A stretch of 64,000 bases of DNA from Escherichia phage UGJNEcP1. Below are positions 10,330 through 55,918 of the stretch, piece after piece. The notes under the pieces are model-generated. The model was not told the origin of the DNA, did no database searches, and was given only the letters and a program-made list of their open reading frames with translations. Position 1 is the first letter of the stretch. Each line of letters begins with the position of its first letter. Location: the sequence record OV754623, one strand, 5' to 3'. A program made the position numbers and the translations under genes.

Positions 10330-13300
10330 ATGGCTACATTAAAACAGATACAATTTAAAAGAAGCAAAGTGGCAGGAGTTAATCCTACTGCAGCACAATT
10401 AGCCGAAGGCGAATTAGCGATAAACTTAAAAGATCGAACTCTTTTTACTAAAGATGACCTCGGTAATATTATTAGCCTAGGCTTTGCTAAGGGTGGGGAT
10501 ATTAACGGTAATGTAACTCAAACTGGCGATTATTTACAAAACGGCACGTATAATCTCAATGGAAATCAGTTTGTTTATGCAGGAAAATACATTGAATTTT
10601 TACCTAAAACCACTGGAAATGGCGCTTGGGCTAACCAACATTCGAATAAAGCCCCTATCTTTACAGATTTAAGTTCAACTACTTCTGTTTCAGAATACCA
10701 TCCACTGATTAAACAACGCTATAAAGATGGAACTTTTTCTGCTGGTACATTAGTAAACGAAGGTAGTTTTAAATTCCATTATATTGATGAAACCGGGACT
10801 TCAAAATACTGGACTTTTAATCGAAACGGTAATTTTCAAGTTGATTCCGGAAGTTTATTAGTATCTAATGGATATTTAGTTACTCAAAGTAATATTGAAA
10901 CTAAAGCTGGTTCTTTAATTGGTCCTAAAGTTATTACCAAAAATATCAATGTGAGCACTAAATCTTGGGACACTAATATTGATACTGCATATGATTTAGT
11001 TTCATTACCGACTTGGCAGTATACTCCAACCGAAACAGATTTGGATACTAATGGTATAAACTACCTTCGTAAATTCCGCGGACATGTTTCTTCTGCTATT
11101 TTCCATGAAGTTGCTGATGCTCGTTCAGGTAAACCACAGAATATTTCGTATTGGACAGGACGTAATGCTGAAGTTTATCAATGGTCTTATACCACAGATG
11201 GGCGTATGTCTGTTGCTAATTCGATAGGTATAGGTCTTGCTGATGTTGGTGACCAAGGACGTTATCCATTGGTTTCGTTTGGTAAAGGTATTGCAATTGG
11301 TGACAATGATACTGGTATTAAATGGGTTCGTGACGGGGTTATCGATTTAGTTGCGAATGGTATTTCTGCCGGCACTATTCTTAATAACGGTATTAACAGT
11401 ACTAAAAAATTGATGGTTGGTTATAGTCGAGATTCTGGTTCTACTTGGGATTACCCAAATAACAACCAAGCAATGTTTACTGCGCGTACCGATGTTGATG
11501 GTAATAATAACGGTGACGGTCAGACTCATATCGGTTATAGTAGCAATGCCAAGATGTATCACTATTTCCGTGGCACTGGTCGTATGTCCGTTAGTATGGG
11601 TGATGGGCTTCTTGTTGAGCCTGGCATTTTAGATATTAAAACCAGTTCAAATAGGGTTGCTATTAGAGCAGATGGTACATTTGACTCAACCCAACGTATT
11701 TCAATGCGTACTGGGTTATTTTTATCAGGTGATGACAATACCAATGCTTTGACATTTAAAGCGCCTACAGGCGTTGACGGGACAAAAACCATTAACTGGG
11801 ATGCAGGTACTCGTAATGGTCAGAATAAAAATACTGTAACCATTAAAGCATGGGGTAACTCATTTAACGCTGAAAAGGGTAATAGAGAAACTGTATTTGA
11901 AGTATCAGATTCACAAGGTTATTATTTTTATGCTCAACGTACCAACCCGGCTTCTGGTGAAACAGTAGGTCCTGTTAACTTTAAATTTAACGGAACTGTC
12001 GAAACAGGCCATATCATAGGCCTTGGTAATATAAGTGCCTCCGGTACAGGTTCTTTTGGTGGCAATGTTACCATGACTAATGGCCTGTTTGTCCAAGGTG
12101 GTTCTTCTATTACAGGCCAAGTTAAAATTGGTGGAACAGCTGATGCATTAAGAATTTGGAATGCTGAATACGGTGCTATTTTCCGTCGTTCTGAAGATAA
12201 GCTTTATATTATTCCAACCCCGCAGAATGCTGGCGAATCAGGTGGTATTTCTAATTTACGTCCGTTCTATATTACATTAAGTACCGGTAAAGTTTCTATG
12301 GACCATGATGTAGATATCGGTGGTGGAATATTTAAAGTAGAAACTAGTGGAACAACAGCAGGGAAACGTATTACAGTTAATGCGGCGTCAGATGCTATTA
12401 GAATAAATGCCCCAACGCAAGAGTCTTCTAACTTTATTCAAGGACGTAAAGCAGATGTTACAAAATGGTATTTAGGTATTGGCGATGGCGGCAACGTCGT
12501 TCGTATGCATAGTTACACCTATTCACATGGTATTGCACTGAATTCTGATACTGTCGATATTACTAAACCATTAAAAGTTGGTAATGCTCAATTCGGTACT
12601 GATGGTAATATCACTGGTGGTTCTGGTAATTTTGCTAACTTGAATACCACAATAAATAACCTTAAGACAGATATTGTCTCAAGTTATCCAATTGGTGCTC
12701 CGATTCCTTGGCCTACTGATACACCTCCTGAAGGTTATGCCATAATGGAAGGCCAGACGTTTGATACTGACTTGTATCCTAAGTTAGCTGCGGTGTATCC
12801 TTCCGGCGCTCTGCCTGATATGCGCGGTCAAACTATCAAGGGTAAACCATCCGGGCGTGCTGTATTAAGTACAGAAGCAGACGGTGTTAAGTCACATAGC
12901 CATAGTGCAAGTGCGTCAAGCACGGATTTAGGTACTAAGACCACTTCTAGTTTTGATTACGGTAGCAAAACGACTTCAAGCTTTGATTATGGTACTAAAA
13001 CCAGTAATACTACTGGTAACCATAACCATACAGTGAGTGGTAATACTAGTGCCGCTGGTAATCACCAGCACTCACAGACAGGCCCAAGAGGACCTAGTAA
13101 CCAACCGACCGGGATATTTCCTAATGGGGCTACTCTAATTAGTGGGACTCAGGTTATTAGTTTTGGCCTAAGCAACGGTATCGTGCCTGGTACAAGCCAA
13201 TATATTGCAAAGTCGTCAACAGAAGGTAACCATACCCATAGTTGGTCAGGAACTACTAGCGCTACTGGTAACCATGCCCATACGGTAGGTATTGGTGCTC

Positions 13301-13443
13301 ATACCCATTCGGTAGGTATTGGTGCTCATTCTCATACTGTTGCAATTGGTTCCCATGGGCATACAATAACTGTAAATGCCACAGGAAATACAGAAAACAC
13401 TGTTAAAAACGTTGCTTTTAACTATATCGTTCGTTTAGCATAA
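10330..13443 (+). CDS. 37: long tail fibre distal subunit gp37 with His-x-His tip motifs
   Basis: 1037 aa (T4 gp37 1026 aa); C-terminal GNHTHSWSG...[23 protein letters not shown] HxH repeats. Confidence 0.95.
12931..13002 (+). repeat. tandem 30-nt direct repeat within gene 37 encoding (T)KTTSSFDYG twice
   Basis: actaagaccacttctagttttgattacggt followed by agcaaaacgacttcaagctttgattatggt; peptide [25 protein letters not shown]. Confidence 0.7.
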
Positions 13444-13449
13444 GGAGAA

Positions 13450-13463
13450 GGGACTTCGGTCCC
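13450..13463 (+). promoter_or_regulatory. UUCG-tetraloop hairpin between the gene 38 Shine-Dalgarno and AUG (also a possible gene 37 terminator)
   Basis: AAGGAG at 13442-13447, hairpin GGGAC-UUCG-GUCCC, then UUUUUAUAAU-AUG at 13474. Confidence 0.55.
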
Positions 13464-13473
13464 TTTTTATAAT

Positions 13474-14025
13474 ATGAAACTCTATCACTATTATTTTGAC
13501 ACTAAAGAATTTTACAAAGAAGAAAATTATAAACCATTAAAAGGCGTAGGATTTCCGGCTCATTCGACACCAAAAAAACCTTTAGACCCTAAAGAAGGCT
13601 ATGCTGTTATATTTGACGAACGCGAGCAAGAATGGGTATATGTTGAAGACCATCGTGGAAAAACAGTATGGACTTATGATAAGCAAAAAATTGTTATTGA
13701 CACTCCAGGTGCTCTTCAAAATGTTACTACAGAAGAACCTGGTGAATTTGACATTTGGACCGACGACGGGTGGAAGGAAGATGAAGCATATAAACGCGTA
13801 GTTCAACGTGATAAGAAAATTCATGAACTCTATAAATTATTCAGTGTTTTAAGTTCTCTTATTGACGCAGAGGTTGCTAATAGAGAAGAAAAACGAAAAT
13901 TTAAAGAGCTCAAAAAATTCTTTGCCCTTTTAGAAAAACATGAACATCTTGGCGGCGAATTCCCTAAATTCCCTGACCTTGAAAAAAAATCTATTGTCAA
14001 AGCGATTATAAATATCTTTAAGTAA
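13474..14025 (+). CDS. 38: tail fibre assembly protein gp38 (T4-type, short form)
   Basis: 183 aa as T4 gp38; no glycine-rich T2-type adhesin segments; synteny after 37. Confidence 0.85.
   Translation: MKLYHYYFDTKEFYKEENYKPLKGVGFPAHSTPKKPLDPKEGYAVIFDEREQEWVYVEDHRGKTVWTYDKQKIVIDTPGALQNVTTEEPGEFDIWTDDGWKEDEAYKRVVQRDKKIHELYKLFSVLSSLIDAEVANREEKRKFKELKKFFALLEKHEHLGGEFPKFPDLEKKSIVKAIINIFK
14007..14014 (+). promoter_or_regulatory. T4 late promoter TATAAATA for holin gene t
   Basis: exact TATAAATA inside the 3' end of gene 38, about 20 nt upstream of t AUG. Confidence 0.65.
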
Positions 14026-14034
14026 GGAGGTATT

Positions 14035-14697
14035 ATGGCAACACCAAAAGTGTCATTTTCGCCTAGTGATATTCTATTTGGGTTGCTAGATCGTATTTTC
14101 AAAGATAACGCTACTGGAAAGGTTTTAATGTCCCGAGTAGCGGTAATTATTCTTTTGTTCCTAATGGCACTAATATGGTACAAAGGAAGTATTTTGCTGG
14201 ATTATTATGTAAGAGCTAAGTATGATACTTATACTGAAATAATCCAAAAAGAACGAGCTTTACGTTTTGAATCTGCGGCTCTAGAACAACTGCAAATAGT
14301 TCATATCTCATCTGGTGCAGATTTTAGTGCTGTGTATTCTTTCAGACCTAAAAACTTAAATTATTTTGTCGACCTTATAGCTTATGAAGGCAAACTACCT
14401 AGCACAATTTCTGAAAAGTCGCTTGGTGGATTCCCGGTGGATAAAACGGCTAATGAATATATAATTCATTTAAGTGGCCGTCATTTCTCATCTAAATCAG
14501 AATTTGCATTTTTGCCTACAAAATCTAAGACTGCCGAACTTTCTTATATGTATAGTTGTCCATACTTTAATTTGGATAACATCTATGCTGGAACTGTGGC
14601 GATGTATTGGTATAAGGGGAATAATAATATACTTGAGGAAGATCGCTTAGCGGCTATATGCAACCAAGCGATCCGAATACTAGGAAGGGCTAAATAA
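14035..14697 (+). CDS. t: holin T
   Basis: 220 aa; KDNATGKVL.SRVAV and FESAALEQLQIVHISSGADFSAVYSFRPKNLNYFVD match T4 holin as recalled; single N-terminal TM segment. Confidence 0.95.
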   Translation: MATPKVSFSPSDILFGLLDRIFKDNATGKVLMSRVAVIILLFLMALIWYKGSILLDYYVRAKYDTYTEIIQKERALRFESAALEQLQIVHISSGADFSAVYSFRPKNLNYFVDLIAYEGKLPSTISEKSLGGFPVDKTANEYIIHLSGRHFSSKSEFAFLPTKSKTAELSYMYSCPYFNLDNIYAGTVAMYWYKGNNNILEEDRLAAICNQAIRILGRAK

Positions 14698-25260: not shown

Positions 25261-26361
25261 TTACGCTGTGAAGATTTTATCCCACATCGCAACAACTGCA
25301 TCTCGGTTATACTTCTTCCATACTGCTTCAGCACGTTTAACTCGAGCTTCGTATGTGTCAGTGAATTCTAATACAGCTTTTGTGTAAAGCGCAACTACTT
25401 CTTTCTTAGGAGTAGAGGAATCAATTTCTACACGCACAGTATCTGGGTCGTATTCGAATGTCGCATGAGGATAATCCTTAAAAACTAACTGGATTACAGG
25501 GACACCTTTAGAGATGGCTTCAATAGAACTATTCTCTACAGTACCTGTGTCAGGACACGTATTAATAAGTGCTTTAGCTGTTTTAAGACGTTCCATAATT
25601 TCACTGTGTGGAGCATCAATAATAACAGGATATTTAGCTGGTGGCGCCCATTTGCTTGGACAGTATCCTGCACCATTTTCGCCTAGTGCTTTAATCGCTT
25701 CAAGAGCAACATCAGTACGACGCATTTTAGTGTCATAACGTTGTGCACTAATAATCAGATCCGTCGCCGGAAGAACTTCTGGCTTTTCAGTCAAACAAAT
25801 AACCGGATAATCTTCGGCTTCAAACAACGGATTTGCTCGCCAATAATCATAATCAATTTTGTCAGTCAGACCTGAAGTCATATAACAATATTTGCGTTCA
25901 AATTCACGGAAGGCTTTAGTAGGAGCATAACTCTTACCACCATTCTTATGAATTTGAATAGTCTGGTCCCAAATTTGAACAATGCCACGAGATACCGGTT
26001 CAAATGGTGTTGCCATAAAATTCTTATGAACTTTAGAGAGACCTGCGTCTTTAATTGCCTGAACGGTTAGTTTAGTCGGTTCCATAGTAACAACAAAATC
26101 GTATTCATGGATGCCGGCTAGTTCAACAATCTTACGAGCCATAGTATAACTCATACCTAGACTGAATTTAGTCAGATGACCAACAGGATGATGATTAACT
26201 TTCCAATCACCAAATGTGTCATTATCAAAACCGATATAATCAATATCAGCACCGATGGACACAAGATATTTCAACACGTTCAAATGAACCGCTTCAAGAC
26301 CACCTTGTACACGGTCAGGATTAAATGGGACTGCACGAGATGGGATAAACATAACTTTCAT
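25261..26361 (-). CDS. putative GT4-like GT-B glycosyltransferase; candidate DNA sugar transferase
   Basis: 366 aa; N-terminal RVQGGLEAVHLNVLKYLVSIG resembles the GT4 GG.E..V..L...L...G motif; C-terminal TGTVENSSIEAISKGVPVIQ resembles the GT4 EGFG...EAMA.G.PVI donor-binding motif. Confidence 0.65.
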   Translation of the reverse strand: MKVMFIPSRAVPFNPDRVQGGLEAVHLNVLKYLVSIGADIDYIGFDNDTFGDWKVNHHPVGHLTKFSLGMSYTMARKIVELAGIHEYDFVVTMEPTKLTVQAIKDAGLSKVHKNFMATPFEPVSRGIVQIWDQTIQIHKNGGKSYAPTKAFREFERKYCYMTSGLTDKIDYDYWRANPLFEAEDYPVICLTEKPEVLPATDLIISAQRYDTKMRRTDVALEAIKALGENGAGYCPSKWAPPAKYPVIIDAPHSEIMERLKTAKALINTCPDTGTVENSSIEAISKGVPVIQLVFKDYPHATFEYDPDTVRVEIDSSTPKKEVVALYTKAVLEFTDTYEARVKRAEAVWKKYNRDAVVAMWDKIFTA

Positions 26362-38020: not shown

Positions 38021-38557
38021 TCAGTAACCATTATCCTGACGTTCAAAGTTGTGTTGGTTTTTCAAGTAGTAAAGTTTAAAGATTTCTTCTGCAGTGAGTC
38101 CAAGACCCTGGAACATATTCAGAACAAAGTGGAGGATATCAATCATTTCAAATTTAATTTCAAGCTGGTCTTCAGGAGACAGTTCATCGATACGACGATT
38201 TCGATATTCAGCATGTTGTGCTTTCCAAGGCTTCCATACAGAGCTAGCGGCTTTTTCACCATTGCTCATACCACCGAGTGAAGTCAGCAGTTCACGGAAT
38301 TCATCATCAATATAATCTTTCTGATTACGCAGCCAATCAACAACATCACCAGCAGTGGCCAATTCATCAGGATGTTTGTTATGTTCAGGCTTGTCATTTG
38401 CCAGACGAACCTGTAAAGATTTCTGCATATCAAGCATTACCTGCAGTGGGTCTTTATCTTCGTGAATCAGAGCATTAAAATAAGCTTCTTCCGCTTTATC
38501 AACACCAGAAATAAGTTGTGAACATTCGTTAAAGTGTGCCATTATTTTTCCTTTCAA
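38021..38557 (-). CDS. 56: dCTPase/dUTPase gp56 candidate (all-alpha NTP pyrophosphatase)
   Basis: 178 aa (T4 gp56 171 aa); acidic E..E....E..D-like pattern; synteny between soc and 61. Confidence 0.55.
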   Translation of the reverse strand: MKGKIMAHFNECSQLISGVDKAEEAYFNALIHEDKDPLQVMLDMQKSLQVRLANDKPEHNKHPDELATAGDVVDWLRNQKDYIDDEFRELLTSLGGMSNGEKAASSVWKPWKAQHAEYRNRRIDELSPEDQLEIKFEMIDILHFVLNMFQGLGLTAEEIFKLYYLKNQHNFERQDNGY

Positions 38558-45373: not shown

Positions 45374-46517
45374 GGTCGTTTTCTATATCTGCTGCAGACG
45401 GAGCATCAGAAGTTTTAACCGGAACTTTAGTTGTTGCTTTGCAATTAATAAGGTCATTAACAGCGTCATCAACTTCTTTAATAGAAGAGATAGCACCTAG
45501 TTTATATTTAGTTTCAATTGCATCTCGGAAAGGTTTGTGTTTAAACAAAGGTCCCCAGAATTCTACACAATCAGTAGCTTTAGCACGCCATGATTTTTCT
45601 TCACGAATCATTTCACCTGTTTCTTCGTCAAGGAATTCGCGAGCATACCAACCGGCTTTAGGCTTAACTACAAAACCAATTTCAGTTGCCATTTCTAACA
45701 AGCCACTGAATGGGTCAATACCGCCATCAAAATTAACCGTGATTGGGAAAGTAGATTTTTCTTTAACGGTGCGAGATTTTTCTGCTTTCAACGTGAAGTC
45801 ATAACCGGTCAATTCTGTACCTTCTTTAACCTGACGTTTAGAGATAAAAAATACCGTGTTGGCAGAATAAAGAATACCTGTACCACCGCCCATAATCTCT
45901 TTAGGATACAATCCGCCAATTTCCATTGCGGTATGGTTGATTGCAACACATGGAATATCTTTAATAGTCAGATAAGGAGTCACAATACGGAACAGAGATT
46001 TAAGTGCCTTAGCACGAGACATATCACCTACAACTTTCTCGTTCAACGCATCTTCGGTTTCTTTCTTAGATGCAGTATTACCGATTGAATCGATAAAGAT
46101 AATAACTTTATCACCGCGTTCAATCGCGTCAAGCTGATTAGTCATATCAACTTTAAGTTGTTCGACTGACTGAATTGGTGTATGAACTACACGGTCTAAA
46201 TCAACACCCATTGAACGAAAATAAGATTCTGAAGCACCAAATTCTGAATCATAGAACAAACAAATTGCATCTTTATATTTCTTCATATATGCTGCAACCA
46301 TAGTTAGTCCAAACAACGTTTTAAAGTGTTTAGAAGGAGCAGCAAAAATAGTCAAGCCTGATTGCAATCCTGCATTCAGAGCACCACCTAATGCAATATT
46401 CAACATCGGAATACGAGTAGGGACTTCATCACGATTATTAAACAGCTTAGACTTAGTCAAGTCTGCAGTCATTTTAGAAGTAGAAGCTTTAATCAGACGA
46501 GATTTTAAATCAGACAT
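45345..46517 (-). CDS. uvsX: UvsX recombinase (RecA-like)
   Basis: 390 aa (T4 UvsX 391 aa); RecA-fold Walker A region and acidic C-terminus. Confidence 0.95.
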   Translation of the reverse strand: MSDLKSRLIKASTSKMTADLTKSKLFNNRDEVPTRIPMLNIALGGALNAGLQSGLTIFAAPSKHFKTLFGLTMVAAYMKKYKDAICLFYDSEFGASESYFRSMGVDLDRVVHTPIQSVEQLKVDMTNQLDAIERGDKVIIFIDSIGNTASKKETEDALNEKVVGDMSRAKALKSLFRIVTPYLTIKDIPCVAINHTAMEIGGLYPKEIMGGGTGILYSANTVFFISKRQVKEGTELTGYDFTLKAEKSRTVKEKSTFPITVNFDGGIDPFSGLLEMATEIGFVVKPKAGWYAREFLDEETGEMIREEKSWRAKATDCVEFWGPLFKHKPFRDAIETKYKLGAISSIKEVDDAVNDLINCKATTKVPVKTSDAPSAADIENDLDEMEDFDE

Positions 46518-46615
46518 TGTATTTTTCCATAGGCATCATTATATTTTACTCATGTTTAAAAGATAAGATGATTATATACTAAGAGTTATACAGCATTTAA
46601 AACTTTAAATGGCTC

Positions 46616-47164
46616 TTAACGAGCCCATTTAATGATTTCTGTAATCAAATTATTACGTTCGCTTGCATTAAATCCTATAACTTTGTTAGAACCATCATGA
46701 TTAAGTAATTGATACGTTTGGATTTTGTTATGAATTGCAAACTCTTCAAAATGTGAAATGACTGTATTAAAACCGAATGAAGACAAAGTAATAAGGTCGT
46801 CTTCAAAACTTTCAGTCATTTCGTTACGTGTTAAAATAATTGTGAACACATCATGGTTTTGGCAAAGACGAACATAATCCTGTTCATAAACGTCAAGAAC
46901 CGAGTCCGCATCTTGTCGAATACGTCCATAAACCCAGTTACTAATATATCCACGGTCTAATAGATAAATCTTAGTAGGGTCTAAATAATTCAACATCGTT
47001 TCGAAACAGCCAACTTCATTTCGAGACTTAACATCGAAACGCCCATCAACTGTTCGTTTAGGGAAATCAATCTTTACATATCTTTCACTAATTTCCATTA
47101 TATCATTAATGAAAGTTGTTTTACCAGCATTATCCGGCCCGTCTACTAAAATAATTTTAGCCAT
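46616..47164 (-). CDS. P-loop kinase (thymidylate/deoxynucleoside-kinase-like fold)
   Basis: 182 aa; Walker A GPDNAGKTT and downstream LLDRGY (DR motif); occupies part of the T4 beta-gt slot. Confidence 0.6.
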   Translation of the reverse strand: MAKIILVDGPDNAGKTTFINDIMEISERYVKIDFPKRTVDGRFDVKSRNEVGCFETMLNYLDPTKIYLLDRGYISNWVYGRIRQDADSVLDVYEQDYVRLCQNHDVFTIILTRNEMTESFEDDLITLSSFGFNTVISHFEEFAIHNKIQTYQLLNHDGSNKVIGFNASERNNLITEIIKWAR

Positions 47165-47165
47165 T

Positions 47166-48065
47166 TTATTCCTCGATTACGACATCTTCGTATTTAGGTA
47201 TATTATACGGTGAAGAAATTAAAGCATTAAAGTAGATGAACTCACCAAGACCTGGATGGAATACTTCTTCAGGATTTTCGAAATATTGAATCTTCGGACG
47301 TCCTTTAAGAATTTGATAGTACTCAGTTTTAGTTGGATTAAAAATTCGAATCAGCGCTTCTTCAGGATACTTATTTCTGTCGAAACTATTATTTGGATCA
47401 GTTATATAAAGCGGTTGACCTAATTGAATTGCGCATTCAACCACTTGTTCAAAACGATAGCATGGGTCACTAATTCGAAATGGATGAAAAATACCATCTA
47501 GATGAATAGGAGCCAAATCACCTACAAGACGCTGCATGACGGAAGGACGTATAACTTTCTGCGTTACGATAATCTTATTACCATCTGCACCTGCGTTAAC
47601 CAGCACTTCTTTTTGACGTTCATTCAACATAGTAGTTTGAAGTGAACGATTAACAGACAACATGTCGGTTTTTAAGAATTCATCAATATAAAAACGTGGT
47701 TTATTAGGGTCTGCAGTGATATTGAAATTGAATTCTACATCAAAAGCGCCGTCATATCCAGTGATATCTGTGATTAGAAAATCACAATCATAATAAGCAA
47801 TTAATGAATCAACCACAAATTCATTTTCAGACCAAAAATATTTACGAGTGTTATACGCGTTATCTTTATACCATAATGGAACAAACTTAAATTCTGGGAA
47901 AAGACGTTCACATTCTTTAATATCAGATGCATTACGTGGATATGTAATCACATCACCCGGATTAGCACGGTGCAAATGAAGTTGGAAGTTGCCATCCTTA
48001 AGGATAGCATACTGTCCAGTTTCATAAGACCGCATACTCAAGATAGGTACGCGGAAAATAGCCAT
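47166..48065 (-). CDS. hypothetical protein in the beta-gt slot (candidate transferase)
   Basis: 299 aa; no confident motif; positional replacement of T4 beta-glucosyltransferase; stop/start abutting neighbours. Confidence 0.5.
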   Translation of the reverse strand: MAIFRVPILSMRSYETGQYAILKDGNFQLHLHRANPGDVITYPRNASDIKECERLFPEFKFVPLWYKDNAYNTRKYFWSENEFVVDSLIAYYDCDFLITDITGYDGAFDVEFNFNITADPNKPRFYIDEFLKTDMLSVNRSLQTTMLNERQKEVLVNAGADGNKIIVTQKVIRPSVMQRLVGDLAPIHLDGIFHPFRISDPCYRFEQVVECAIQLGQPLYITDPNNSFDRNKYPEEALIRIFNPTKTEYYQILKGRPKIQYFENPEEVFHPGLGEFIYFNALISSPYNIPKYEDVVIEE

Positions 48066-48781
48066 TAGTCAAGGAATCCTTTAACATAATCAAAATCACG
48101 TTCAAACACATGGGCACTTACCATGGTATGAGTATAATCACCAACTTCTACACCACATTCGTTAGCGATATAATGAAGTAATTTTCCTTGGAGATAAAAA
48201 TCCAACTGCATAACAACAGCACAGTTCTGGGAACGCATATGACAGTGGGTATAAAGCTTACCATCACGAATATAATAAGTCACTGAGTCAGTACATGGAT
48301 ATTCAAGCGTTTCGTCCGAATCAAGCAAAGCCTGATCAGAACTTTCTAGAATTTGGAACACAACTCTTCGGGAGTTAGGCTTCTCTTTAAGTTCTTTTAG
48401 AAGAGCTGGTAATTGAGCCGCAATGCGAGGGCCATAGAAAGTGTTGAAGTTCGCCGGCAAAACATCTGATTTTGGTTTAGAAATAAATTTAGCGACATTA
48501 GGATATGCCTTAAACGCTTCTTCTGCGTTGGTACCACCAGAAATCATAAACTTCCAGAAGTCTTCGGCATATTCATAAGAGATGCGGTTAATACGTGGGT
48601 CGGTCATTTTGAATGATGATGGAGTGTCAACAACCACTGTCATAGACCCAATTTCATTACAACGTCCAATACGAGAATCAGTTACGAATTCCGGGTTTTC
48701 TAAAATTTCACGATTGACTGCTTTAAATGCGGCTTGAAAATCTGCGGCTTTGATATATTTCATTGTGTTATGTTTTCCCAT
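48065..48781 (-). CDS. 42: thymidylate-synthase-fold pyrimidine C5-modifying enzyme, probable dCMP hydroxymethylase gp42
   Basis: 238 aa; YPCTDSVTYYIRDGKLYTHCHMRSQN has the catalytic-Cys and R/S motifs of the TS/dCMP-hydroxymethylase fold; synteny. Confidence 0.65.
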   Translation of the reverse strand: MGKHNTMKYIKAADFQAAFKAVNREILENPEFVTDSRIGRCNEIGSMTVVVDTPSSFKMTDPRINRISYEYAEDFWKFMISGGTNAEEAFKAYPNVAKFISKPKSDVLPANFNTFYGPRIAAQLPALLKELKEKPNSRRVVFQILESSDQALLDSDETLEYPCTDSVTYYIRDGKLYTHCHMRSQNCAVVMQLDFYLQGKLLHYIANECGVEVGDYTHTMVSAHVFERDFDYVKGFLD

Positions 48782-48823
48782 GTTTACCTCAATACAATTT
48801 ATTATATACTCAATTCGTAAAGC

Positions 48824-49063
48824 TTATTTGAATTTCTTGACAATGTTGATATAACGTAAAGCTTCAGCATCGATACTTCCAAGAACACTATGAAGAAATG
48901 CATCAGCGTAATATTCTAGTTGAACAGGTTCTTTAATCACTTTAGCCGCTTTAGTTTCAAACAGGCCCATCAGGGCCTTTTTAAGAATTTGTTCGTTAGT
49001 GTTCAGTTTAATAGTCAAAATCTCTTCGTTAAGTTGGTGGTTAAAAGTTTTTCTAGAAATCAT
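48824..49063 (-). CDS. hypothetical small protein
   Basis: 79-aa ORF with ATGA-type overlap with the upstream gene. Confidence 0.45.
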   Translation of the reverse strand: MISRKTFNHQLNEEILTIKLNTNEQILKKALMGLFETKAAKVIKEPVQLEYYADAFLHSVLGSIDAEALRYINIVKKFK

Positions 49064-50220
49064 TCCGGGTACCTCAAAGCGTCATCAGAGTTAGTTATAT
49101 CAATAATAGATATAGAGTTTTCTGCTAACCCGTTTTTAGATAATTGACGTTTATAATATCTTTCACAATATGTACACGTCGTCCCGCAGATTTCATTAGC
49201 ACAATCGAAATCTGGATGTCTGAACCACCTTTTTTCTAAAAAGCCATCTAACAAAGAGGTTTCAATATTTACTGTATGTGAAAACTCAGTTTCGTTTTCA
49301 AGAGTGAAAATAGTCTCTAAAGGCTTCCACAGTTCTAACAAATTACCTTCAAACTTTTCAGAAGCGTATGCTTCAAGAACTTTCAAAATGTAGTCTGTGC
49401 TACCTGTACGTCCTGAAACTTTGAATTGAGTGATACCAATATCATTATAAAGTTTCAAATCTTGAGGACGAACAAAACGAGTTCTCAACCAGTTAAATGG
49501 GTCTGTATCACGAGCTTTAATACAGTGCTGCATAGGATATCCGTTTAAGGATTTAGCATCATCGGCTGTAACATCAGTACTATGGAAAATATAGCAAGAG
49601 TCACGATAGCTACAATGTGTTGTATACCCTTTACCAGCATTAGAACAGAACTCATTTACAAGAACTTCAAATATTATATTGTTCTTATTGCAAAACTCTG
49701 CTGCACGCTTCAGGAAAGAAACTGAACGGTTCTTATGAATTCCACAGCAGACCTTTTTGATATTATATTGGTCATGCAAGTATTTGATTTGAGTTACAGC
49801 ATCGACATGTAGAATTGTTGAAACTTCAATCTCAATGTCTTTATTGACTTCACGAACAATTTCCATAACAACAGGGTTAGCGATAGTAATACGCCATACG
49901 CCTATTGACCAAAGATACTGAACATAATCCTGAATAGCTTTCTTCTTCCACTCAACTAGTTCTCTTTTTGAACCAGGATTTATCGTGTTGAGTGTATAGT
50001 TAAAGCAAATACCTAATTCGTTACAACGTTTAACGTAATCTTCTAACATCTTTTTGTCAACGTCAGGAAGCCTAAAATCAGGTCTGGCTGCTACAAAAGC
50101 CATTTCTCTTGTAGAGCCGTATACTTCATTTATCAAGCTATTAGGATAAGTTTTATTGAGCTCTACGATTTTATCAAGAAGAGCTAAATCAAAATTCGTT
50201 CCGATTTTAAAAGTATTCAT
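49060..50220 (-). CDS. U32-family (collagenase-like / Fe-S hydroxylase-like) enzyme candidate
   Basis: 386 aa; NYTLNTIN and VLVNEFCSNAGKGYTTHCSY resemble U32 TIM-barrel motifs (partial match to the E.F..G..C....G.C..S signature); C-terminal C-x4-C-x3-C-x2-C cluster. Confidence 0.45.
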   Translation of the reverse strand: MNTFKIGTNFDLALLDKIVELNKTYPNSLINEVYGSTREMAFVAARPDFRLPDVDKKMLEDYVKRCNELGICFNYTLNTINPGSKRELVEWKKKAIQDYVQYLWSIGVWRITIANPVVMEIVREVNKDIEIEVSTILHVDAVTQIKYLHDQYNIKKVCCGIHKNRSVSFLKRAAEFCNKNNIIFEVLVNEFCSNAGKGYTTHCSYRDSCYIFHSTDVTADDAKSLNGYPMQHCIKARDTDPFNWLRTRFVRPQDLKLYNDIGITQFKVSGRTGSTDYILKVLEAYASEKFEGNLLELWKPLETIFTLENETEFSHTVNIETSLLDGFLEKRWFRHPDFDCANEICGTTCTYCERYYKRQLSKNGLAENSISIIDITNSDDALRYPE

Positions 50221-50274
50221 TTTTTACATCTCGCGTTAATTGATGCGATGGTTTTTTTGCAGGTCTTACTTAAA

Positions 50275-50679
50275 TTATTGTAGATTCGGTTTATATGATT
50301 TAAATGTTTCGAATTCGCCTTTATTCATAAGAGCTTTGAATTCGTCAGGACGCATAGCTTTGTCGTCGATAATCCAATCATATACTGGTTTATGTGTTAG
50401 CAAATTATGGTACTTCAAGCCAATGTTTGCCAAGTTCTGAATCAGACTTGGGAGAATGTCAATTGCTATACGACCAGGACCTACTGACTTCATACCGCGA
50501 GCAGTGTAAAGCGTTATGGTATGCCCTGCATCATACAGGGCATTAATGGCAGACACCATTTCGACGTCTGGTTTGAAGTTCACGTAATCACGATTGTTAT
50601 TCCACTCTGTTATACAATCATCGACATCAAAACAAAGATTAAGCATGTTTTCTACACGGTGCATTAGATTCGTTCCCAT
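50275..50679 (-). CDS. HAD-superfamily phosphatase-like protein
   Basis: 134 aa; LCFDVDDCIT (DxD motif I), TLYTARG (motif II), IIDDK (motif IV). Confidence 0.55.
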   Translation of the reverse strand: MGTNLMHRVENMLNLCFDVDDCITEWNNNRDYVNFKPDVEMVSAINALYDAGHTITLYTARGMKSVGPGRIAIDILPSLIQNLANIGLKYHNLLTHKPVYDWIIDDKAMRPDEFKALMNKGEFETFKSYKPNLQ

Positions 50680-52349
50680 TGATGAGTGATATCGCCACCG
50701 ATTGGACGATAAGAAACACCAGTTTCTTTATCAGTTAGTACCCATTTACCAGGATTTTTTGTAATCAGAGTAGCCGTTACAGGCTCTGCTACGTCATAAC
50801 TAATAGAGCCGTCTTGAAGTACACGGCCCATGTTACGTAATTGCTTAGTCAGAAGTTCCATACCTTTATAATATGCGGCTACCGCTTTAAGTGGATTATT
50901 CTTGAAATAACCACCTAATGCAATCCAGATAATTGCCACCGCCAAATGATGATACTCGTTAAACGAACTCATCTTTCCATATTTGTAAATTAATGGATTG
51001 ATGTTAATAGTCACATTACAAGTTGTTTCATCAATAGTAAACTGTCCCCAGGTCGGATTAGCATTGAATTCATCATAACCTGAAACAGCATAAAGCACTT
51101 TAGCTTCATCGTACAATTTTGGCCCGTAAATCTTGGTTTCGCCAAAATATCCACGAGGGTCGATAAACTTGACTTCGCCGTTATCAGTAATCATAGTATT
51201 ACTGAAGTTCGGGTCACCGTGAATAACAGAGTACTGTCCCTGAGAACGGTTATGATAACGAATAAGGTGTTCTAAAGCTTGTTTCAGCATTGGCTTCAGA
51301 CGTCCAATCTTAGTGTAGTTCACGTGTGTGATTTTACCAAATGAATCAATCAATGGTTGAATGCTTTCACAACGATCAATAACTTTCGTATAGAATTCTT
51401 TAGTGAAATCACGACGAACAGTTTCAGGACTTACAAAATAAGTGTCTGTGCTGAATTTCAGTGCATCTAAAATTGCATCAACAATTTGTGGACGAGCAAG
51501 ACTTGATTTGGATTTAATATATTCAAATGCCGGCTTACCTTTAATGCGTTCCATTTCAAAGTTATTTTCATTAACAGAAACTAACTGAGGAACTGAATCT
51601 GATTTCACTTTAAGATACCATGAAATCTCATCTTTCTGAAGAGCTCGGCCCTGTTCGGTTAATGCGAATTTAGTTACAGTTTCTTCACCAATTTCAACTG
51701 CATTAAAACTACGATTAAGTTCACGAACTTCATGAGCCTTTTCAAGTTTAGGCATATCACCTAAATCAATTAGATTCATAAGCTCTGATTTATTGAATGC
51801 ACTCCCGTAAAGGAATTCTACAAAATCACGTCCTTTGCAATATTCGTGAATTTCCTCATCAGTAGAACCCATGTAGAATTCCCAGTCTTTGAACTGATAA
51901 ATTCCTACAACATTACCACCTGTTGAACCTACGTTAGTGATATTTTCACCGTCGAAATTATATCGACATTCGTCACCCTTAACATAGATTGCGTTAACAT
52001 TCCAAGACCATGAACCAAAATCAGGAATAATATCACACCAGTTAACAATTACGTTATGGCCGTCTAAATCTTTGTGTAATTTAGCAAGAGCATAAGCAGA
52101 ACCATACGCTTCATCAACTGTACGAATAGTCACATTGAACCCTTCTTGCTCACAATAAGCTCGAACAGTTTCAGCAAATTTTGAATGAACTACTACAATA
52201 ATTTCATCTGCGCCAAGGTCAGAATAAATTGTATACAAATTGCTCAGAATAGTGTCTTGTTTATAGTTAACAAGCACCTTAGGAATATGATGCGTTATTG
52301 GATACAAACGAGTTGCCAGTCCAGCACCAAGAATAACAGCTTTTTTCAT
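50664..52349 (-). CDS. bifunctional sugar-1-phosphate nucleotidyltransferase / APH-like sugar kinase
   Basis: 561 aa; N-terminal MKKAVILGAGLATRLYPITHHIPKVLV (nucleotidyltransferase G-loop); C-terminal VIHGDPNFSNTMI...FIDPRGYFGE (HGD...N and ID motifs of the aminoglycoside/choline-kinase fold). Confidence 0.75.
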   Translation of the reverse strand: MKKAVILGAGLATRLYPITHHIPKVLVNYKQDTILSNLYTIYSDLGADEIIVVVHSKFAETVRAYCEQEGFNVTIRTVDEAYGSAYALAKLHKDLDGHNVIVNWCDIIPDFGSWSWNVNAIYVKGDECRYNFDGENITNVGSTGGNVVGIYQFKDWEFYMGSTDEEIHEYCKGRDFVEFLYGSAFNKSELMNLIDLGDMPKLEKAHEVRELNRSFNAVEIGEETVTKFALTEQGRALQKDEISWYLKVKSDSVPQLVSVNENNFEMERIKGKPAFEYIKSKSSLARPQIVDAILDALKFSTDTYFVSPETVRRDFTKEFYTKVIDRCESIQPLIDSFGKITHVNYTKIGRLKPMLKQALEHLIRYHNRSQGQYSVIHGDPNFSNTMITDNGEVKFIDPRGYFGETKIYGPKLYDEAKVLYAVSGYDEFNANPTWGQFTIDETTCNVTININPLIYKYGKMSSFNEYHHLAVAIIWIALGGYFKNNPLKAVAAYYKGMELLTKQLRNMGRVLQDGSISYDVAEPVTATLITKNPGKWVLTDKETGVSYRPIGGDITHQWERI

Positions 52350-52390
52350 GTTGAAGTCCTCATTGGTAAGTAGGAGTATTGTACACTATT

Positions 52391-52534
52391 CTAGTTAAAG
52401 CATTCATACTTTGCTTGTAGTCCAATCATAATCCATCCGATTATAAGAGTCGGAATCATTACCGGAGCCGTTAAGCTCCAGTAGATAGTCATGACAAGCA
52501 TCAATAGTAAAAGTCCTATTGTTATTGCTTTCAT
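52391..52534 (-). CDS. small hydrophobic peptide
   Basis: 47-aa ORF MKAITIGLLLLMLVMTIYWSL...; ATGA overlap with the SIS gene stop; below track cutoff. Confidence 0.3.
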   Translation of the reverse strand: MKAITIGLLLLMLVMTIYWSLTAPVMIPTLIIGWIMIGLQAKYECFN

Positions 52535-53166
52535 TGTTCGCCTCGTAACATGGCACCTAGTGCACCGCCTGGATGGAACTTAAGGAAGTCATTAGAGGTA
52601 AATCCACGTTCAGACGAAAGGTTGATAGCAAACGTATCGATAAGCGCTAACAACAATGTAGTGGACATAGTCGGAGCCAGAGAATTCTCATCAACCTCTA
52701 CCGCGATGCCTGTACAGAAAGAGTAATCAAAAAGGGCTTCATTTTCTTGCGGAATGTCTGGGTTACAATGCAACAGAATCTGTTTGACGTTCGGTCGAAT
52801 CATTTTAAGATGCTTAGCCACGCCTATCATTTCTTCAGTTTTACCAGAACGACTAATATGAATCAACACATCATTAGGCGCAATGAATCCTGCGTCACCG
52901 TGAGAATAATGTCCAGTGTTCAAGTACATACTCGGGATACCGAGTGAAGCAAATGTCTCAGAAGCTTTAGTTGCAATATTAGCATTCTTACCAACACCTG
53001 TAATAATTACTCGGCTTTCATAATTACTAAGTCCAGGGCGTCGAAGAGTTTCTAGAATAGCATTATAACGAGCAGGGTTTTGACTAATTACTTTGGCCAT
53101 AGCGGCCAAAGAAGAAGCTTGTTTTATGATTGCGTCAATAGCGATAGTAATAGGAGTAGTTTTCAT
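52531..53166 (-). CDS. SIS-domain sugar-phosphate isomerase (arabinose-5-phosphate isomerase / GmhA-like)
   Basis: 211 aa; ITGVGKNANIA and HISRSGKTEE are canonical SIS phosphosugar-binding motifs; no CBS domains. Confidence 0.75.
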   Translation of the reverse strand: MKTTPITIAIDAIIKQASSLAAMAKVISQNPARYNAILETLRRPGLSNYESRVIITGVGKNANIATKASETFASLGIPSMYLNTGHYSHGDAGFIAPNDVLIHISRSGKTEEMIGVAKHLKMIRPNVKQILLHCNPDIPQENEALFDYSFCTGIAVEVDENSLAPTMSTTLLLALIDTFAINLSSERGFTSNDFLKFHPGGALGAMLRGEQ

Positions 53167-53206
53167 ATTTCTCTCATTTAATTAGTTTACCGTCCATGGC
53201 ATTATA

Positions 53207-55918
53207 TCAAAAATCGAACATATCGAACAGAGATGCTTTCTTCTCGTAATCGAGTTTCGCTGCTGATGTGAATCCTTCAAGTGGTTTAATAAATGTCTTC
53301 TCAAGGAGAACAGTGTAGTCCATCCAATGAAGTACGTCGTCTTTAATTAAATCTGTGATTTCCGTACCAGAAGGCCATGCGATACATTTATCACCGAATG
53401 GGTTTCCATCACGTAAAGGCAGAACGTATACCTTTTCGCCTTCTACAACTTGTGGAGCATCAATATTACCTTTGATAGCTCGGTTATATGTCAGAATTCC
53501 ACGAATATGGAACGGGCATTTAGGTCCTGGATATCCACCTACATCATATTTAGCAATGTTATTCGCAGAAGATACCGACGCGATGCTAATATAATTCAAT
53601 TGACGGAATTCTTTTTCAAACTCTTTAAAATATTCTTGTAATGATTCTTCACCTTCTTGAAGCATACGACGAATACATTCTTTAAGAGCTTTCTGTACTG
53701 CTTTAGGAGTCGAAGATTTCTGAGTCTCTAGACCCATGATTTTGAGTTTAGGCTCAGCGTAACGAGTACCTTCCATATCCCACACGTTTAATGCATAACG
53801 TTTCTTACCAGTCCAGAATCCACCAATACCTTTAGAACCGAGCGGAGGTCCAGCGATAGCTTCTCGGTCCATGAACATTAAGTGTTGTTTATTGTTCATG
53901 TATTCACACATTTCACGGAAACCTTTATCAATAGCTGGTTCCATACGTTCACGTGCAAACTTATCTAAGAAGTCTACCCAATGGTTGGTATCACGGAATT
54001 TAGATTCACCAACCTTATCGATAATTTTATCAGCAGATACGTAAATAGAGTCTGTATCACCATAAAGAACGAAAGCTTCACCTTCTGTGCCACAAACTTC
54101 ATTCAGATATTCATTAACTTTACGTTCAATCCACTGTAAAGCCATTTGACCAAATGTTGTGATTGCAGTTGCATTACGCAAATCGTAATAACGGAACCAA
54201 ACGTTGCCAAGTGCACCATAAAGCGAGTTGATGAGCAATTTACGGTTAATCTGTGCAGTCATACCTGCAACTTCAGTACGTTGAGCTCTAAACAACATTT
54301 CATTAAGAGATTTAGCAGACAACTTTTTAATCTTTTCTTTAATCTCATCGCTGAAGTCGAAACGATAATCAACATCTAATGGTTCGTCAACAGAAAGATT
54401 AGGATTATGCAATGCCTCTTTAATTATTTCACCATTACGTTGAGCTGCAAGCATGTAACCTTTATGTTCTTTACGTTGATTAAAGACCTTAGTTATTTCA
54501 GTTGGAACTACACCATCACGGTCTTTATAATACATCATGCCGTTAGGAGAACAACTGTACACATCTGAAGGACGTTCAGCGATTGCGTTAATATAATCAT
54601 GCAATGGAGCTACTTTAAACGTTCCTGCTATTGTTTCCGGGCTAATATTCACTTGGCGAATAATACTTGGATACAGAGATGTAAGGTCGAAACTCATTAC
54701 ATATTTGTATCGATTTGGAATAGGTTCCTTAACAAAAGCACCCGGGTAAGGTTGAACTGGATGCGAACGACCTTGTGGAATCACCTTGTTTTGTTCTTTA
54801 AGGCTATTAAAAATAATAGCGTCCCAAGTTTTAATTGGACTGAACACAGATTGAATCTGAATTTTAGCATAATAACCCATGTCCAAACTCAAGTTGATGA
54901 ACTGACGCTTAGCATCAATTTGCAATACACGATACACGTCGATAATGTTATAAGAAATATATCGTTGGTGATTGCTTTCACGAAGCTTAGAAATAGGGCC
55001 GTCATATTTCAGTTTACCAACGTTCAATTCAAATTCTGAAATGTAATCCAGAGAATACGACGGTTGATTAGTAAAAGAGAATTTTTTGTAAAGGTCGATG
55101 TAATCAAGAACAGAGATACCGAACAATGTAATGATTTCACGAGAACCATACATGTTTTCGATAACTTTAACACGAGTTTTACGATGTGGTGATAAACGTT
55201 TCGCAGTAGATTCGCCAAAAATATTCTTGATTCGGTTATACACATATGGAATATCAAATGACTCAACGTTCCATCCGGTTAAAATGACAGGAGTTTTCTG
55301 TTGCCAGAAGTTGAGATATTCCATCAACAATTCTTTTTCGTTATCGAACGGCATATAAACGATTTTATCGATAATTTCAGATGGAACCTCATCACCACCT
55401 TGTTCTTGAAGCTTAGCAGCGATTTCAATAGACCATTCTTCTACATTACCGTATGGAGAATTCAATAGATCAAATACGTAGAACCTGTCGTCAATTGAGT
55501 CATAATGGGTGATAGCATCAATCGGATGTTTTGCTTGTGACGGCTCAGGGAACCCGTCCGGAGATGTTACTTCGATGTCGAAGTTAGCCACACGAATTTT
55601 TGTATGGTCGTATTTGATTTCATAGTTATAAGTGTCAGACAAATACGCCAATTTGAAATCGTCCATGCCAAGTGCTTCAAGTCCGATATCTTCCATGCGT
55701 TTAATCCATTGGGAGGCATCACGCATATTAGCGAACAACTTACGAGTACACGGCTTACCGTAGATATCGAAATATTTCGTAGCCTGACTTTCCGGACAAT
55801 GAGCAAACAGTGATGGTTTATATTCTACTTCACGAGTACGTTCACGGCCATTAGAATCGATGTAACGTTCAAAAATTGAATCACCAATCTGTTCAACCGT
55901 TAAGTAAAATTCTTTCAT
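53207..55918 (-). CDS. 43: DNA polymerase gp43 (family B)
   Basis: 903 aa; N-terminus MKEFYLTVEQIGDSIFERYIDSNGRERTRE matches RB69 gp43 as recalled; exonuclease FDIE and polymerase YGDTDS motifs. Confidence 0.97.
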   Translation of the reverse strand: MKEFYLTVEQIGDSIFERYIDSNGRERTREVEYKPSLFAHCPESQATKYFDIYGKPCTRKLFANMRDASQWIKRMEDIGLEALGMDDFKLAYLSDTYNYEIKYDHTKIRVANFDIEVTSPDGFPEPSQAKHPIDAITHYDSIDDRFYVFDLLNSPYGNVEEWSIEIAAKLQEQGGDEVPSEIIDKIVYMPFDNEKELLMEYLNFWQQKTPVILTGWNVESFDIPYVYNRIKNIFGESTAKRLSPHRKTRVKVIENMYGSREIITLFGISVLDYIDLYKKFSFTNQPSYSLDYISEFELNVGKLKYDGPISKLRESNHQRYISYNIIDVYRVLQIDAKRQFINLSLDMGYYAKIQIQSVFSPIKTWDAIIFNSLKEQNKVIPQGRSHPVQPYPGAFVKEPIPNRYKYVMSFDLTSLYPSIIRQVNISPETIAGTFKVAPLHDYINAIAERPSDVYSCSPNGMMYYKDRDGVVPTEITKVFNQRKEHKGYMLAAQRNGEIIKEALHNPNLSVDEPLDVDYRFDFSDEIKEKIKKLSAKSLNEMLFRAQRTEVAGMTAQINRKLLINSLYGALGNVWFRYYDLRNATAITTFGQMALQWIERKVNEYLNEVCGTEGEAFVLYGDTDSIYVSADKIIDKVGESKFRDTNHWVDFLDKFARERMEPAIDKGFREMCEYMNNKQHLMFMDREAIAGPPLGSKGIGGFWTGKKRYALNVWDMEGTRYAEPKLKIMGLETQKSSTPKAVQKALKECIRRMLQEGEESLQEYFKEFEKEFRQLNYISIASVSSANNIAKYDVGGYPGPKCPFHIRGILTYNRAIKGNIDAPQVVEGEKVYVLPLRDGNPFGDKCIAWPSGTEITDLIKDDVLHWMDYTVLLEKTFIKPLEGFTSAAKLDYEKKASLFDMFDF

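Follow-up and report, generated by a model that had tools for sequence, protein, structure and literature searches.

A U32-family protein in the cytosine-modification cluster of an RB69-like coliphage: a possible oxygen-free counterpart of its 5-hydroxy-dCMP synthase

A 64,000-nucleotide stretch of Escherichia phage UGJNEcP1 (sequence record OV754623), referred to below as the window, belongs to a T4-like, RB69-like Mosigvirus and encodes a 386-residue protein of the U32 family that starts with an ATG codon. Phages of the RB69 type, which are phage-therapy candidates, replace every cytosine by arabinosylated 5-hydroxycytosine (5hoC), evading restriction and CRISPR. The sole known hydroxylase of this pathway requires O2, while RB69-type phages inhabit the largely anoxic gut. 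We put at about even the chance that the U32 protein is a prephenate-dependent, O2-independent cytosine-C5 hydroxylase which sustains the modification in anoxia. The new observation reported here is that U32 genes of this type are linked to genes for chorismate mutase (CM) or DAHP synthase.

The window protein is a genuine U32-family member with a U32-like TIM barrel. It matches Pfam PF01136 (Peptidase_U32) over residues 94–286 with a score of 42.2 bits (E = 7.3e-11; gathering score 22.4), which can be compared with the 38.3 bits obtained for the validated hydroxylase UbiV. The AlphaFold2 model, calculated with 112 homologues as input (pLDDT 93.3, pTM 0.91), shows the alternating strand/helix pattern, and its top match among solved structures in a Foldseek search is the U32 protein Mk0906 (PDB entry 5d88; E = 2.9e-7, TM score 0.69 on the target). 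Alignment of the subfamily profile with E. coli RlhA using hhalign gives a probability of 86% (E = 5e-6, 207 columns), and the protein is assigned to PHROG 5757. Neither the single protein nor the 112-sequence profile gave a real match in sequence searches of the PDB. A sequence-only reading had proposed U32 membership from motif resemblance alone and had suggested a PF01136 profile search as a check; that search, the predicted structure and the RlhA alignment all agree with it. Identity to the E. coli U32 proteins is 17–21%, and the phage proteins form a separate subfamily within U32.

The names in GenBank, PHROG and Pfam ('peptidase', 'collagenase-like protease') would make this protein a protease, which is highly improbable. 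The label is historical and U32 'peptidases' have no established catalytic mechanism (PMC5727448), the E. coli members studied so far serve as hydroxylation factors (PMC5727448, PMC10990095), and nine invariant cysteines together with the genomic context do not suit a protease. We reject the protease reading on this context and on the family literature.

RlhA is the best profile match, and every characterised pyrimidine-hydroxylating U32 enzyme acts on RNA (PMC6599085, PMC5727448). The phage protein might thus be an RNA hydroxylase like TrhP or RlhA, acting on host or phage tRNA or rRNA (ho5U34, ho5C2501) and tuning translation independently of DNA modification. We regard this as improbable. 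A Pfam search of the window protein found neither Peptidase_U32_C nor DUF3656, the domains carried by TrhP and RlhA, and E. coli already possesses TrhP, TrhO and RlhA. A search of the window detected no tRNA gene, and U32 genes of this subfamily always lie in DNA-precursor or DNA-modification clusters, within the Straboviridae only in genera that have the 5hoC pathway.

The YTLNT motif noticed in the sequence-only reading is indeed present (residues 75–79); no member of the subfamily departs from its N78, which stays nearly invariant when the E. coli U32 enzymes are included. Nine cysteines are invariant across the 112 homologues (46–87% identity): C158, C192, C203, C209, C233, C340, C345, C349 and C352. 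In an alignment with four E. coli U32 proteins, C203 and C209 coincide with C169/C176 of UbiU, C170/C177 of TrhP and C169/C176 of RlhA. The [4Fe-4S] site of UbiU is formed by four cysteines (C169, C176, C193 and C232), of which the window protein keeps two equivalents, C203 and C209. The classical U32 signature, E-x-F-x2-G-[SA]-[LIVM]-C-x4-G-x-C-x-[LIVM]-S, has as its window counterpart E185-V-L-V-N-E-F-C192 ... T-H-C203-S-Y-R-D-S-C209-Y-I-F-H-S. Both cysteines and the trailing Y/S are kept, but the cysteines are spaced C-x5-C and there is no glycine. The earlier description of a partial match to the U32 cysteine signature was accurate: C203 and C209 align with Fe-S ligands, and the two other ligand positions are missing. 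The UbiU substitution C176A abolishes both cluster binding and activity (PMC10990095). C158, C192 and C233, together with the four C-terminal cysteines, could replace the missing cluster ligands, and UbiV likewise has a ligand set that differs from that of UbiU.

The four-cysteine cluster that had been noted at the C-terminus is present as CANEICGTTCTYC (residues 340–352). This CX4CX3CX2C arrangement does not occur in E. coli UbiU, UbiV or TrhP and is a candidate second Fe-S or Zn site. Written as C-x4-C-G-x-T-C-x-Y-C, the motif contains a perfect radical-SAM-like CX3CX(aromatic)C, placed after the TIM barrel and with the fourth cysteine ahead of it. A radical-SAM assignment was considered, as CGTTCTYC fits CX3CX(aromatic)C, and was rejected given the preceding fourth cysteine, the post-barrel position and the lack of a Radical_SAM Pfam match at E <= 1.

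Linkage to prephenate-making genes is widespread. An AroQ CM gene lies beside the U32 gene, or within about 2 kb of it, in phages of at least 12 other Straboviridae host genera, with Klebsiella, Pectobacterium, Yersinia, Proteus and Shewanella among the hosts, and the same is seen in Erysipelotrichales and Romboutsia elements. The gene following U32 in Enterobacter phage Entb_45 encodes an AroQ CM (Pfam CM_2 40.9 bits against a threshold of 27; PDB entry 1ybz, E = 3.5e-8), and CM_2 matches at the Pfam threshold beside or near U32 were also obtained for Klebsiella phage CP-p-KP-21072, PM2, TG1, Pm5461 and Thanatos-2. In the Shewanella phage Thanatos-2 the U32–CM pair is still adjacent, although it is displaced from the thymidylate synthase (TS) homologue gene. 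A tblastn search finds the CM in 51 phage records, every one of them in U32-carrying genera and none in Acinetobacter phages. Outside these phages, an Erysipelotrichales genome bin has a CM_2 gene (68.1 bits) about 2 kb downstream of a U32 homologue and a Romboutsia bin has one (51.7 bits) immediately downstream, the two U32 homologues being 47–52% identical to the phage proteins. On one metagenomic phage contig (L011) a DAHP synthase gene directly follows U32 (E = 2.6e-70, compared with 3e-17 for KDO8P synthase).

When the phage CMs are aligned with E. coli PheA, R11, R28, K39, E52, S84 and Q88 are all invariant. These are the active-site residues of E. coli CM in the 1ECM structure, and the phage enzymes thus have an intact active site. 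The CMs of Serratia phage LC53 (L022, 4884–5228) and Proteus phage Pm5461 (L006, 5399–5785) carry at the N-terminus about 39 and 55 additional residues, respectively, that the 79–85-residue versions do not have. Prephenate has been shown to be the oxygen donor for UbiU/V (PMC10990095), and TrhP and RlhA genetically require it (PMC6599085, PMC5727448). Among the papers covered by full-text searches, none ties phage U32 proteins to prephenate or CM; the Thanatos paper and the 2018 RB69 paper contain no discussion of the U32 gene.

The sequence-only reading had labelled the neighbouring TS-like gene gp42. Its product is not a dCMP hydroxymethylase but a 5-hydroxy-dCMP (5hodCMP) synthase: it is 97.9% identical to the enzyme of HY126, a Mosigvirus homologue of RB69 gp48, and bears D169N and N177D, the signature of the proven O2/flavin-dependent 5hodCMP synthases (PMC13326640). 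In the report by Lee et al. (PMC13326640), RB69 DNA is stated to contain arabinosylated 5hoC and not hydroxymethylcytosine, and gp48 is described as an FMN-binding TS homologue that uses O2 to make 5hodCMP, as shown by 18O2 labelling; in vitro reconstitution with the HY126 enzyme is cited there. RB69p050, a homologue 99.5% identical to the window U32 protein, figures in Table 1 of that report as an untested row, 'Sugar or heterocycle reductase', with a match to 5d88. RB69-type phages also carry a gene for an anaerobic ribonucleotide reductase, according to PMC13390438.

We envisage a stand-alone U32 TIM-barrel enzyme, most likely holding one or two iron–sulfur clusters, that most likely works in the manner of the bacterial U32 hydroxylases UbiU/V, TrhP and RlhA and would hydroxylate cytosine at C5 without O2, with oxygen taken from prephenate. 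The favoured substrate is a mononucleotide, with dCMP converted to 5-hydroxy-dCMP, since the protein, like UbiU/V, consists of the barrel alone, lacks a nucleic-acid-binding extension and is always encoded among deoxynucleotide-metabolism genes. It would then act as an anaerobic partner to the neighbouring O2/flavin-dependent 5hodCMP synthase, and the 5-hydroxyl acceptor for arabinosylation would be kept up during replication in the anoxic gut. Such a pairing would parallel UbiI/H/F with UbiU/V and TrhO with TrhP in E. coli. In most related phages the phage-encoded AroQ CM beside U32 would raise the supply of prephenate, whereas the Mosigvirus lineage that includes the window has no CM gene and would rely on host PheA and TyrA.

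The metagenomic relatives place U32 in a similar setting. All seven distinct contexts examined (L008, L009/L010, L011, L017, L018, L019 and L020) have it in nucleotide- or DNA-metabolism modules, surrounded by genes for dCMP deaminase, thymidylate kinase, NT5C, dNK, UDG, deoxyribosyltransferase and the DNA polymerase III alpha subunit. On L018 the gene for a TET-associated glycosyltransferase overlaps the U32 stop codon, and as this glycosyltransferase family acts on DNA, the same chemistry might be carried out on the polymer, with the cytosine of newly replicated phage DNA as the target and a role like that of TET/JBP upstream of DNA glycosyltransferases. The polynucleotide substrate of RlhA, the closest characterised relative, points in the same direction. 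The window protein nevertheless has no nucleic-acid-binding extension of the kind found in TrhP and RlhA, the neighbouring genes encode mainly mononucleotide enzymes (dCMP deaminase, kinases, NT5C, dNK), and 5hodCMP is already channelled through a dNMP kinase in the phage (PMC13326640). Action on the polymer is thus unlikely in our judgement, and the mononucleotide remains the preferred substrate of the proposed hydroxylase.

Some further arrangements around these relatives were observed. The L018 segment 5777–14179 encodes, besides U32, a DXD glycosyltransferase, the TET-associated glycosyltransferase, dUTPase/DCD and a UDP-galactopyranose mutase, with neither TET nor a TS homologue, and is a putative new hypermodification cluster. 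A radical-SAM gene, often with SPASM, lies within a few kilobases of U32 on L008 (1–249), L009 (12160–13185), L019 (5980–7011) and L020 (5972–7000); on the last two it is followed by a gene for an unannotated protein of about 327 residues directly upstream of U32. This may represent a partner or a maturase. L009 also has a second, highly divergent U32-like gene (13227–14360), which matches TrhP weakly (E = 0.004) and is found 4 kb away from the other, adjoining radical-SAM/SPASM and nucleoside deoxyribosyltransferase-like genes. An identical four-gene layout (GP88, kinase and/or methyltransferase, an unannotated protein of about 265 residues and U32) is found in a Phocaeicola faecalis isolate (L031, 3176–7089) and on L009 (5135–9098), a metagenomic contig, which suggests a conserved module.

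A whole-library search for the subfamily yields 1,185 clusters at E <= 1e-3; with the stricter limit of E <= 1e-10 the number is 720. Among phage records, U32 is found in 221, none of them from Acinetobacter phages, whereas the arabinosyltransferase is found in 348, including 57 from Acinetobacter phages; the U32 cassette is missing from all 57 of these Acinetobacter phages with the arabinosylation pathway. Acinetobacter is a strict aerobe. Matches in species-representative cellular genomes fall in anaerobic lineages in eight cases out of eight. Acinetobacter phage DLP3 and Dhakavirus CLB_P2 have an arabinosylation cluster without U32, in which the HAD phosphatase gene is followed by the kinase and/or TS gene, so the U32 cassette is separable. 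Where it occurs, U32 is more conserved than any other protein of the cluster, with 81–87% identity across genera compared with 69–84% for the TS homologue and 49–68% for the arabinosyltransferase. It is under purifying selection: comparison with HY126 reveals 24 synonymous changes and one non-synonymous change (dN/dS = 0.01).

These distributions also bear on the sequence-only reading's suggestion that the enzyme could act on either the base or the sugar. An oxidoreductase of the arabinose branch that alters, for example, the pentose or the nucleotide carrier would agree with the 'Sugar or heterocycle reductase' entry that stands in Table 1 of Lee et al. (PMC13326640). The gene lies between sugar-activation and base-modification genes, and several homologues are found near sugar-nucleotide enzymes (RmlC, an RmlD-like protein, GLF, NTase). 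DLP3 and Dhakavirus, however, make arabinosyl-5hoC without U32, and the DNA of DLP3 is proven to be modified (PMC13326640), which argues that U32 is not a core enzyme of the sugar pathway. U32 proteins have no known sugar chemistry, and the linkage to CM and DAHP synthase has no obvious use in pentose chemistry. A sugar-directed activity therefore seems improbable, and we favour the base over the sugar both for the prephenate supply that this linkage implies and for the arabinosyl-5hoC phages that lack U32.

The target could also be a different one altogether: a second, condition-specific base such as 5-hydroxy-dUMP, a host metabolite that is oxidised, or prephenate itself, consumed for host takeover. 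Homologues without a nearby TS-type 5hodCMP synthase, located beside dCMP deaminase and dUTPase/DCD, point to uracil-side chemistry in some lineages. According to PMC13326640, the virion DNA of aerobically grown RB69 and DLP3 has only arabinosylated 5hoC in place of cytosine. As U32 in the Straboviridae is moreover restricted to genera with the 5hoC cluster, we assign such other targets a low probability.

Several points weigh against a prephenate-dependent cytosine hydroxylase. Only two of the four canonical cysteine ligand positions are kept, the other two belonging to an insert that is missing from the subfamily. Among the NCBIfam equivalog models the sole match is UbiU (NF047963), which scores 18.5 bits where the cutoff is 440; with UbiU and TrhP scores so far below the cutoff, the window protein is no orthologue of any characterised enzyme. 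A six-frame hmmsearch for CM over all 64 kb of the window gave noise only. The CM of other phages could feed another prephenate-consuming reaction, and CmoA-type synthesis of Cx-SAM exists in phages (PMC12783734), although no CmoA is found in the U32/CM clusters. About 60 enterobacterial phages, Dhakavirus CLB_P2 among them, have the pathway without U32, so U32 is dispensable even in facultative anaerobes. The absence from Acinetobacter phages may reflect just one or two evolutionary events, and the aerobe/anaerobe pattern is based on few independent lineages. Bacterial U32 enzymes have not yet been reconstituted in vitro (PMC10990095). Finally, a role may have been assigned to the protein, or ruled out for it, in He et al. 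2026 (Nat Chem Biol) or in Mahler et al. 2025 (Cell Host Microbe).

The U32 gene is part of a co-directional cluster flanked by uvsX on one side and the DNA polymerase gene gp43 on the other, and within it separates sugar-activation genes from base-modification genes (Table 1). Over 46500–53300 the window matches Escherichia phage UGJNEcP2 at 100% identity and RB69 at 98.2%. A promoter and terminator scan of the cluster gave no more sites than shuffled sequence.

Table 1. Features of the modification cluster and of the U32 protein (window coordinates)
Feature	Coordinates	Strand	Basis and remarks
Nucleotide kinase, P-loop thymidylate-kinase-like	46616..47164	(-)	RB69 gp45 homologue; PMC13326640
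DNA arabinosyltransferase 1	47166..48065	(-)	RB69 gp46:47 homologue, intact in window; PMC13326640
Thymidylate-synthase homologue, O2/flavin-dependent 5-hydroxy-dCMP synthase	48065..48781	(-)	RB69 gp48 homologue; D169N, N177D; PMC13326640
79-residue open reading frame	48824..49063	(-)	RB69 ORF049c homologue; not chorismate mutase
U32-family protein, 386 residues, TIM barrel and C-terminal Cys cluster	49060..50220	(-)	PF01136, PHROG 5757, AlphaFold2, 5d88, hhalign RlhA
YTLNT motif, residues 75–79 of U32	49984..49998	(-)	N78 invariant in subfamily
Core Cys region, residues 158–233 of U32	49522..49749	(-)	Invariant C158, C192, C203, C209, C233
C-terminal CX4CX3CX2C cluster (C340, C345, C349, C352), residues 340–352 of U32	49165..49203	(-)	Invariant in 112 homologues
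HAD-type sugar-phosphate phosphatase	50275..50679	(-)	RB69 gp51 / AfhF homologue; PMC13326640
Bifunctional nucleotidyltransferase/kinase	50664..52349	(-)	RB69 gp52:53 / AfhE homologue, intact in window; PMC13326640
SIS-domain arabinose-5-phosphate isomerase	52531..53166	(-)	RB69 gp55 homologue; PMC13326640

The 79-residue open reading frame (ORF) is translationally coupled to U32, its start codon overlapping the U32 stop codon (ATGA). The ORF was considered as a divergent CM and rejected: there is no Pfam match at E <= 10, the BLASTP E value is 7 and the hhalign probability against the phage CMs is 0.1%. It is homologous to another small ORF located between U32 and CM in Yersinia phage TG1 and Serratia phage 92A1, and the family shares the motif YYADAFxHS...RHINV. 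Among Mosigviruses it evolves faster than U32 (91–97% compared with at least 99% identity) and is often shortened to 47–58 residues; in HY126 it is frameshifted. Its AlphaFold2 model is weak (pLDDT 67, pTM 0.40).

The arabinosyltransferase (299 residues) and the nucleotidyltransferase/kinase (561 residues) are each encoded by one intact ORF in the window. This agrees with Lee et al. (PMC13326640), who ascribe the split ORFs 46/47 and 52/53 of the RB69 reference to sequencing errors. A 50-residue ORF with a GTG start (52404–52556, minus strand) lies between the isomerase and nucleotidyltransferase genes, and small ORFs are annotated at the matching position in HY126, LC53, PM2 and TG1. Elsewhere in the window, a 366-residue ORF (25261–26361, minus strand) near rIIA, with one small ORF in between, has no Pfam match and, judged by its position, probably encodes the second DNA arabinosyltransferase (RB69 gp3). 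The offset of 13 nucleotides between its coordinates and the ones obtained from OV877511 means that identity between the window and UGJNEcP2 does not extend over the full length. The gene at 38021–38542 (minus strand) encodes a MazG/dUTPase_2-like NTP pyrophosphohydrolase, homologous to RB69p028, which is likely to be a dCTPase that removes dCTP for the modified-base pathway.

If the proposed activity is correct, a U32 enzyme that depends on prephenate would account for the persistence of the modification in the gut, and the logic of paired aerobic and anaerobic enzymes (NrdAB/NrdDG, UbiIHF/UbiUV, TrhO/TrhP) would extend to viral DNA hypermodification. Aerobic laboratory genetics would then overlook the role of the gene. 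A U32 enzyme that acts on a soluble nucleotide and has its prephenate supplier encoded alongside would be unusually amenable to study, and with such a substrate the phage enzyme could be the first U32 hydroxylase to be reconstituted in vitro. More tentatively, and with less than even confidence, the subfamily as a whole (at least 700 clusters at 50% identity) could be a general oxygen-free hydroxylase of phage DNA precursors or DNA bases. When the phage host is a strict anaerobe, the enzyme would stand in for TET/JBP dioxygenases and flavin-dependent TS-type hydroxylases and open the route to glycosylated hydroxypyrimidine DNA; coliphages of the gut would use it as an anaerobic twin of the O2-dependent enzyme. 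The wider family hints at undiscovered hydroxylated or glycosylated DNA bases in phages of strict anaerobes.

Among the known systems, RlhA (YdcP), the 5-hydroxycytidine synthase for C2501 of E. coli 23S rRNA, resembles the phage protein in its Pfam family, as its best profile–profile match and in the cysteine pair C169/C176. RlhA makes 5-hydroxycytidine and depends on prephenate and on Fe-S biogenesis (PMC5727448). Extra C-terminal cysteines are essential in RlhA, and extra C-terminal cysteines are invariant in the phage protein. The two differ in that RlhA is a 653-residue protein with DUF3656 and an rRNA substrate and shares 21% identity, while the phage protein is a 386-residue barrel with another C-terminal motif (CX4CX3CX2C) and without the insert that holds RlhA C192/C196.

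The O2-independent ubiquinone hydroxylases UbiU and UbiV are barrel-only like the phage protein, and the UbiU [4Fe-4S] ligands C169/C176 correspond to C203/C209 of the window protein. They use prephenate as the oxygen donor and form the anaerobic half of a pair with O2/flavin monooxygenases (PMC10990095); we propose the same relation between the window U32 protein and the flavin-dependent TS homologue. UbiU and UbiV differ from the phage protein in their 17% identity and weak profile scores, and they form heterodimers that work with UbiT on a lipid, whereas the phage gene is single and its product has a second cysteine cluster of its own. TrhP (YegQ), also of the U32 family, is a prephenate-dependent C5-hydroxylase of tRNA U34 that is redundant with the O2-dependent TrhO in facultative anaerobes (PMC6599085); it differs in its Peptidase_U32_C domain, its RNA substrate and an hhalign probability of 19%. 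Mk0906, the sole solved U32 structure and the best structural match, also reported by Lee et al., shares 11% identity and has 247 residues. The TS-type synthase of RB69 (gp48) and HY126 has a thymidylate synthase fold, needs O2 and is experimentally validated, yet it makes 5hodCMP, the very product proposed for U32, and is encoded next door in the same operon-like cluster.

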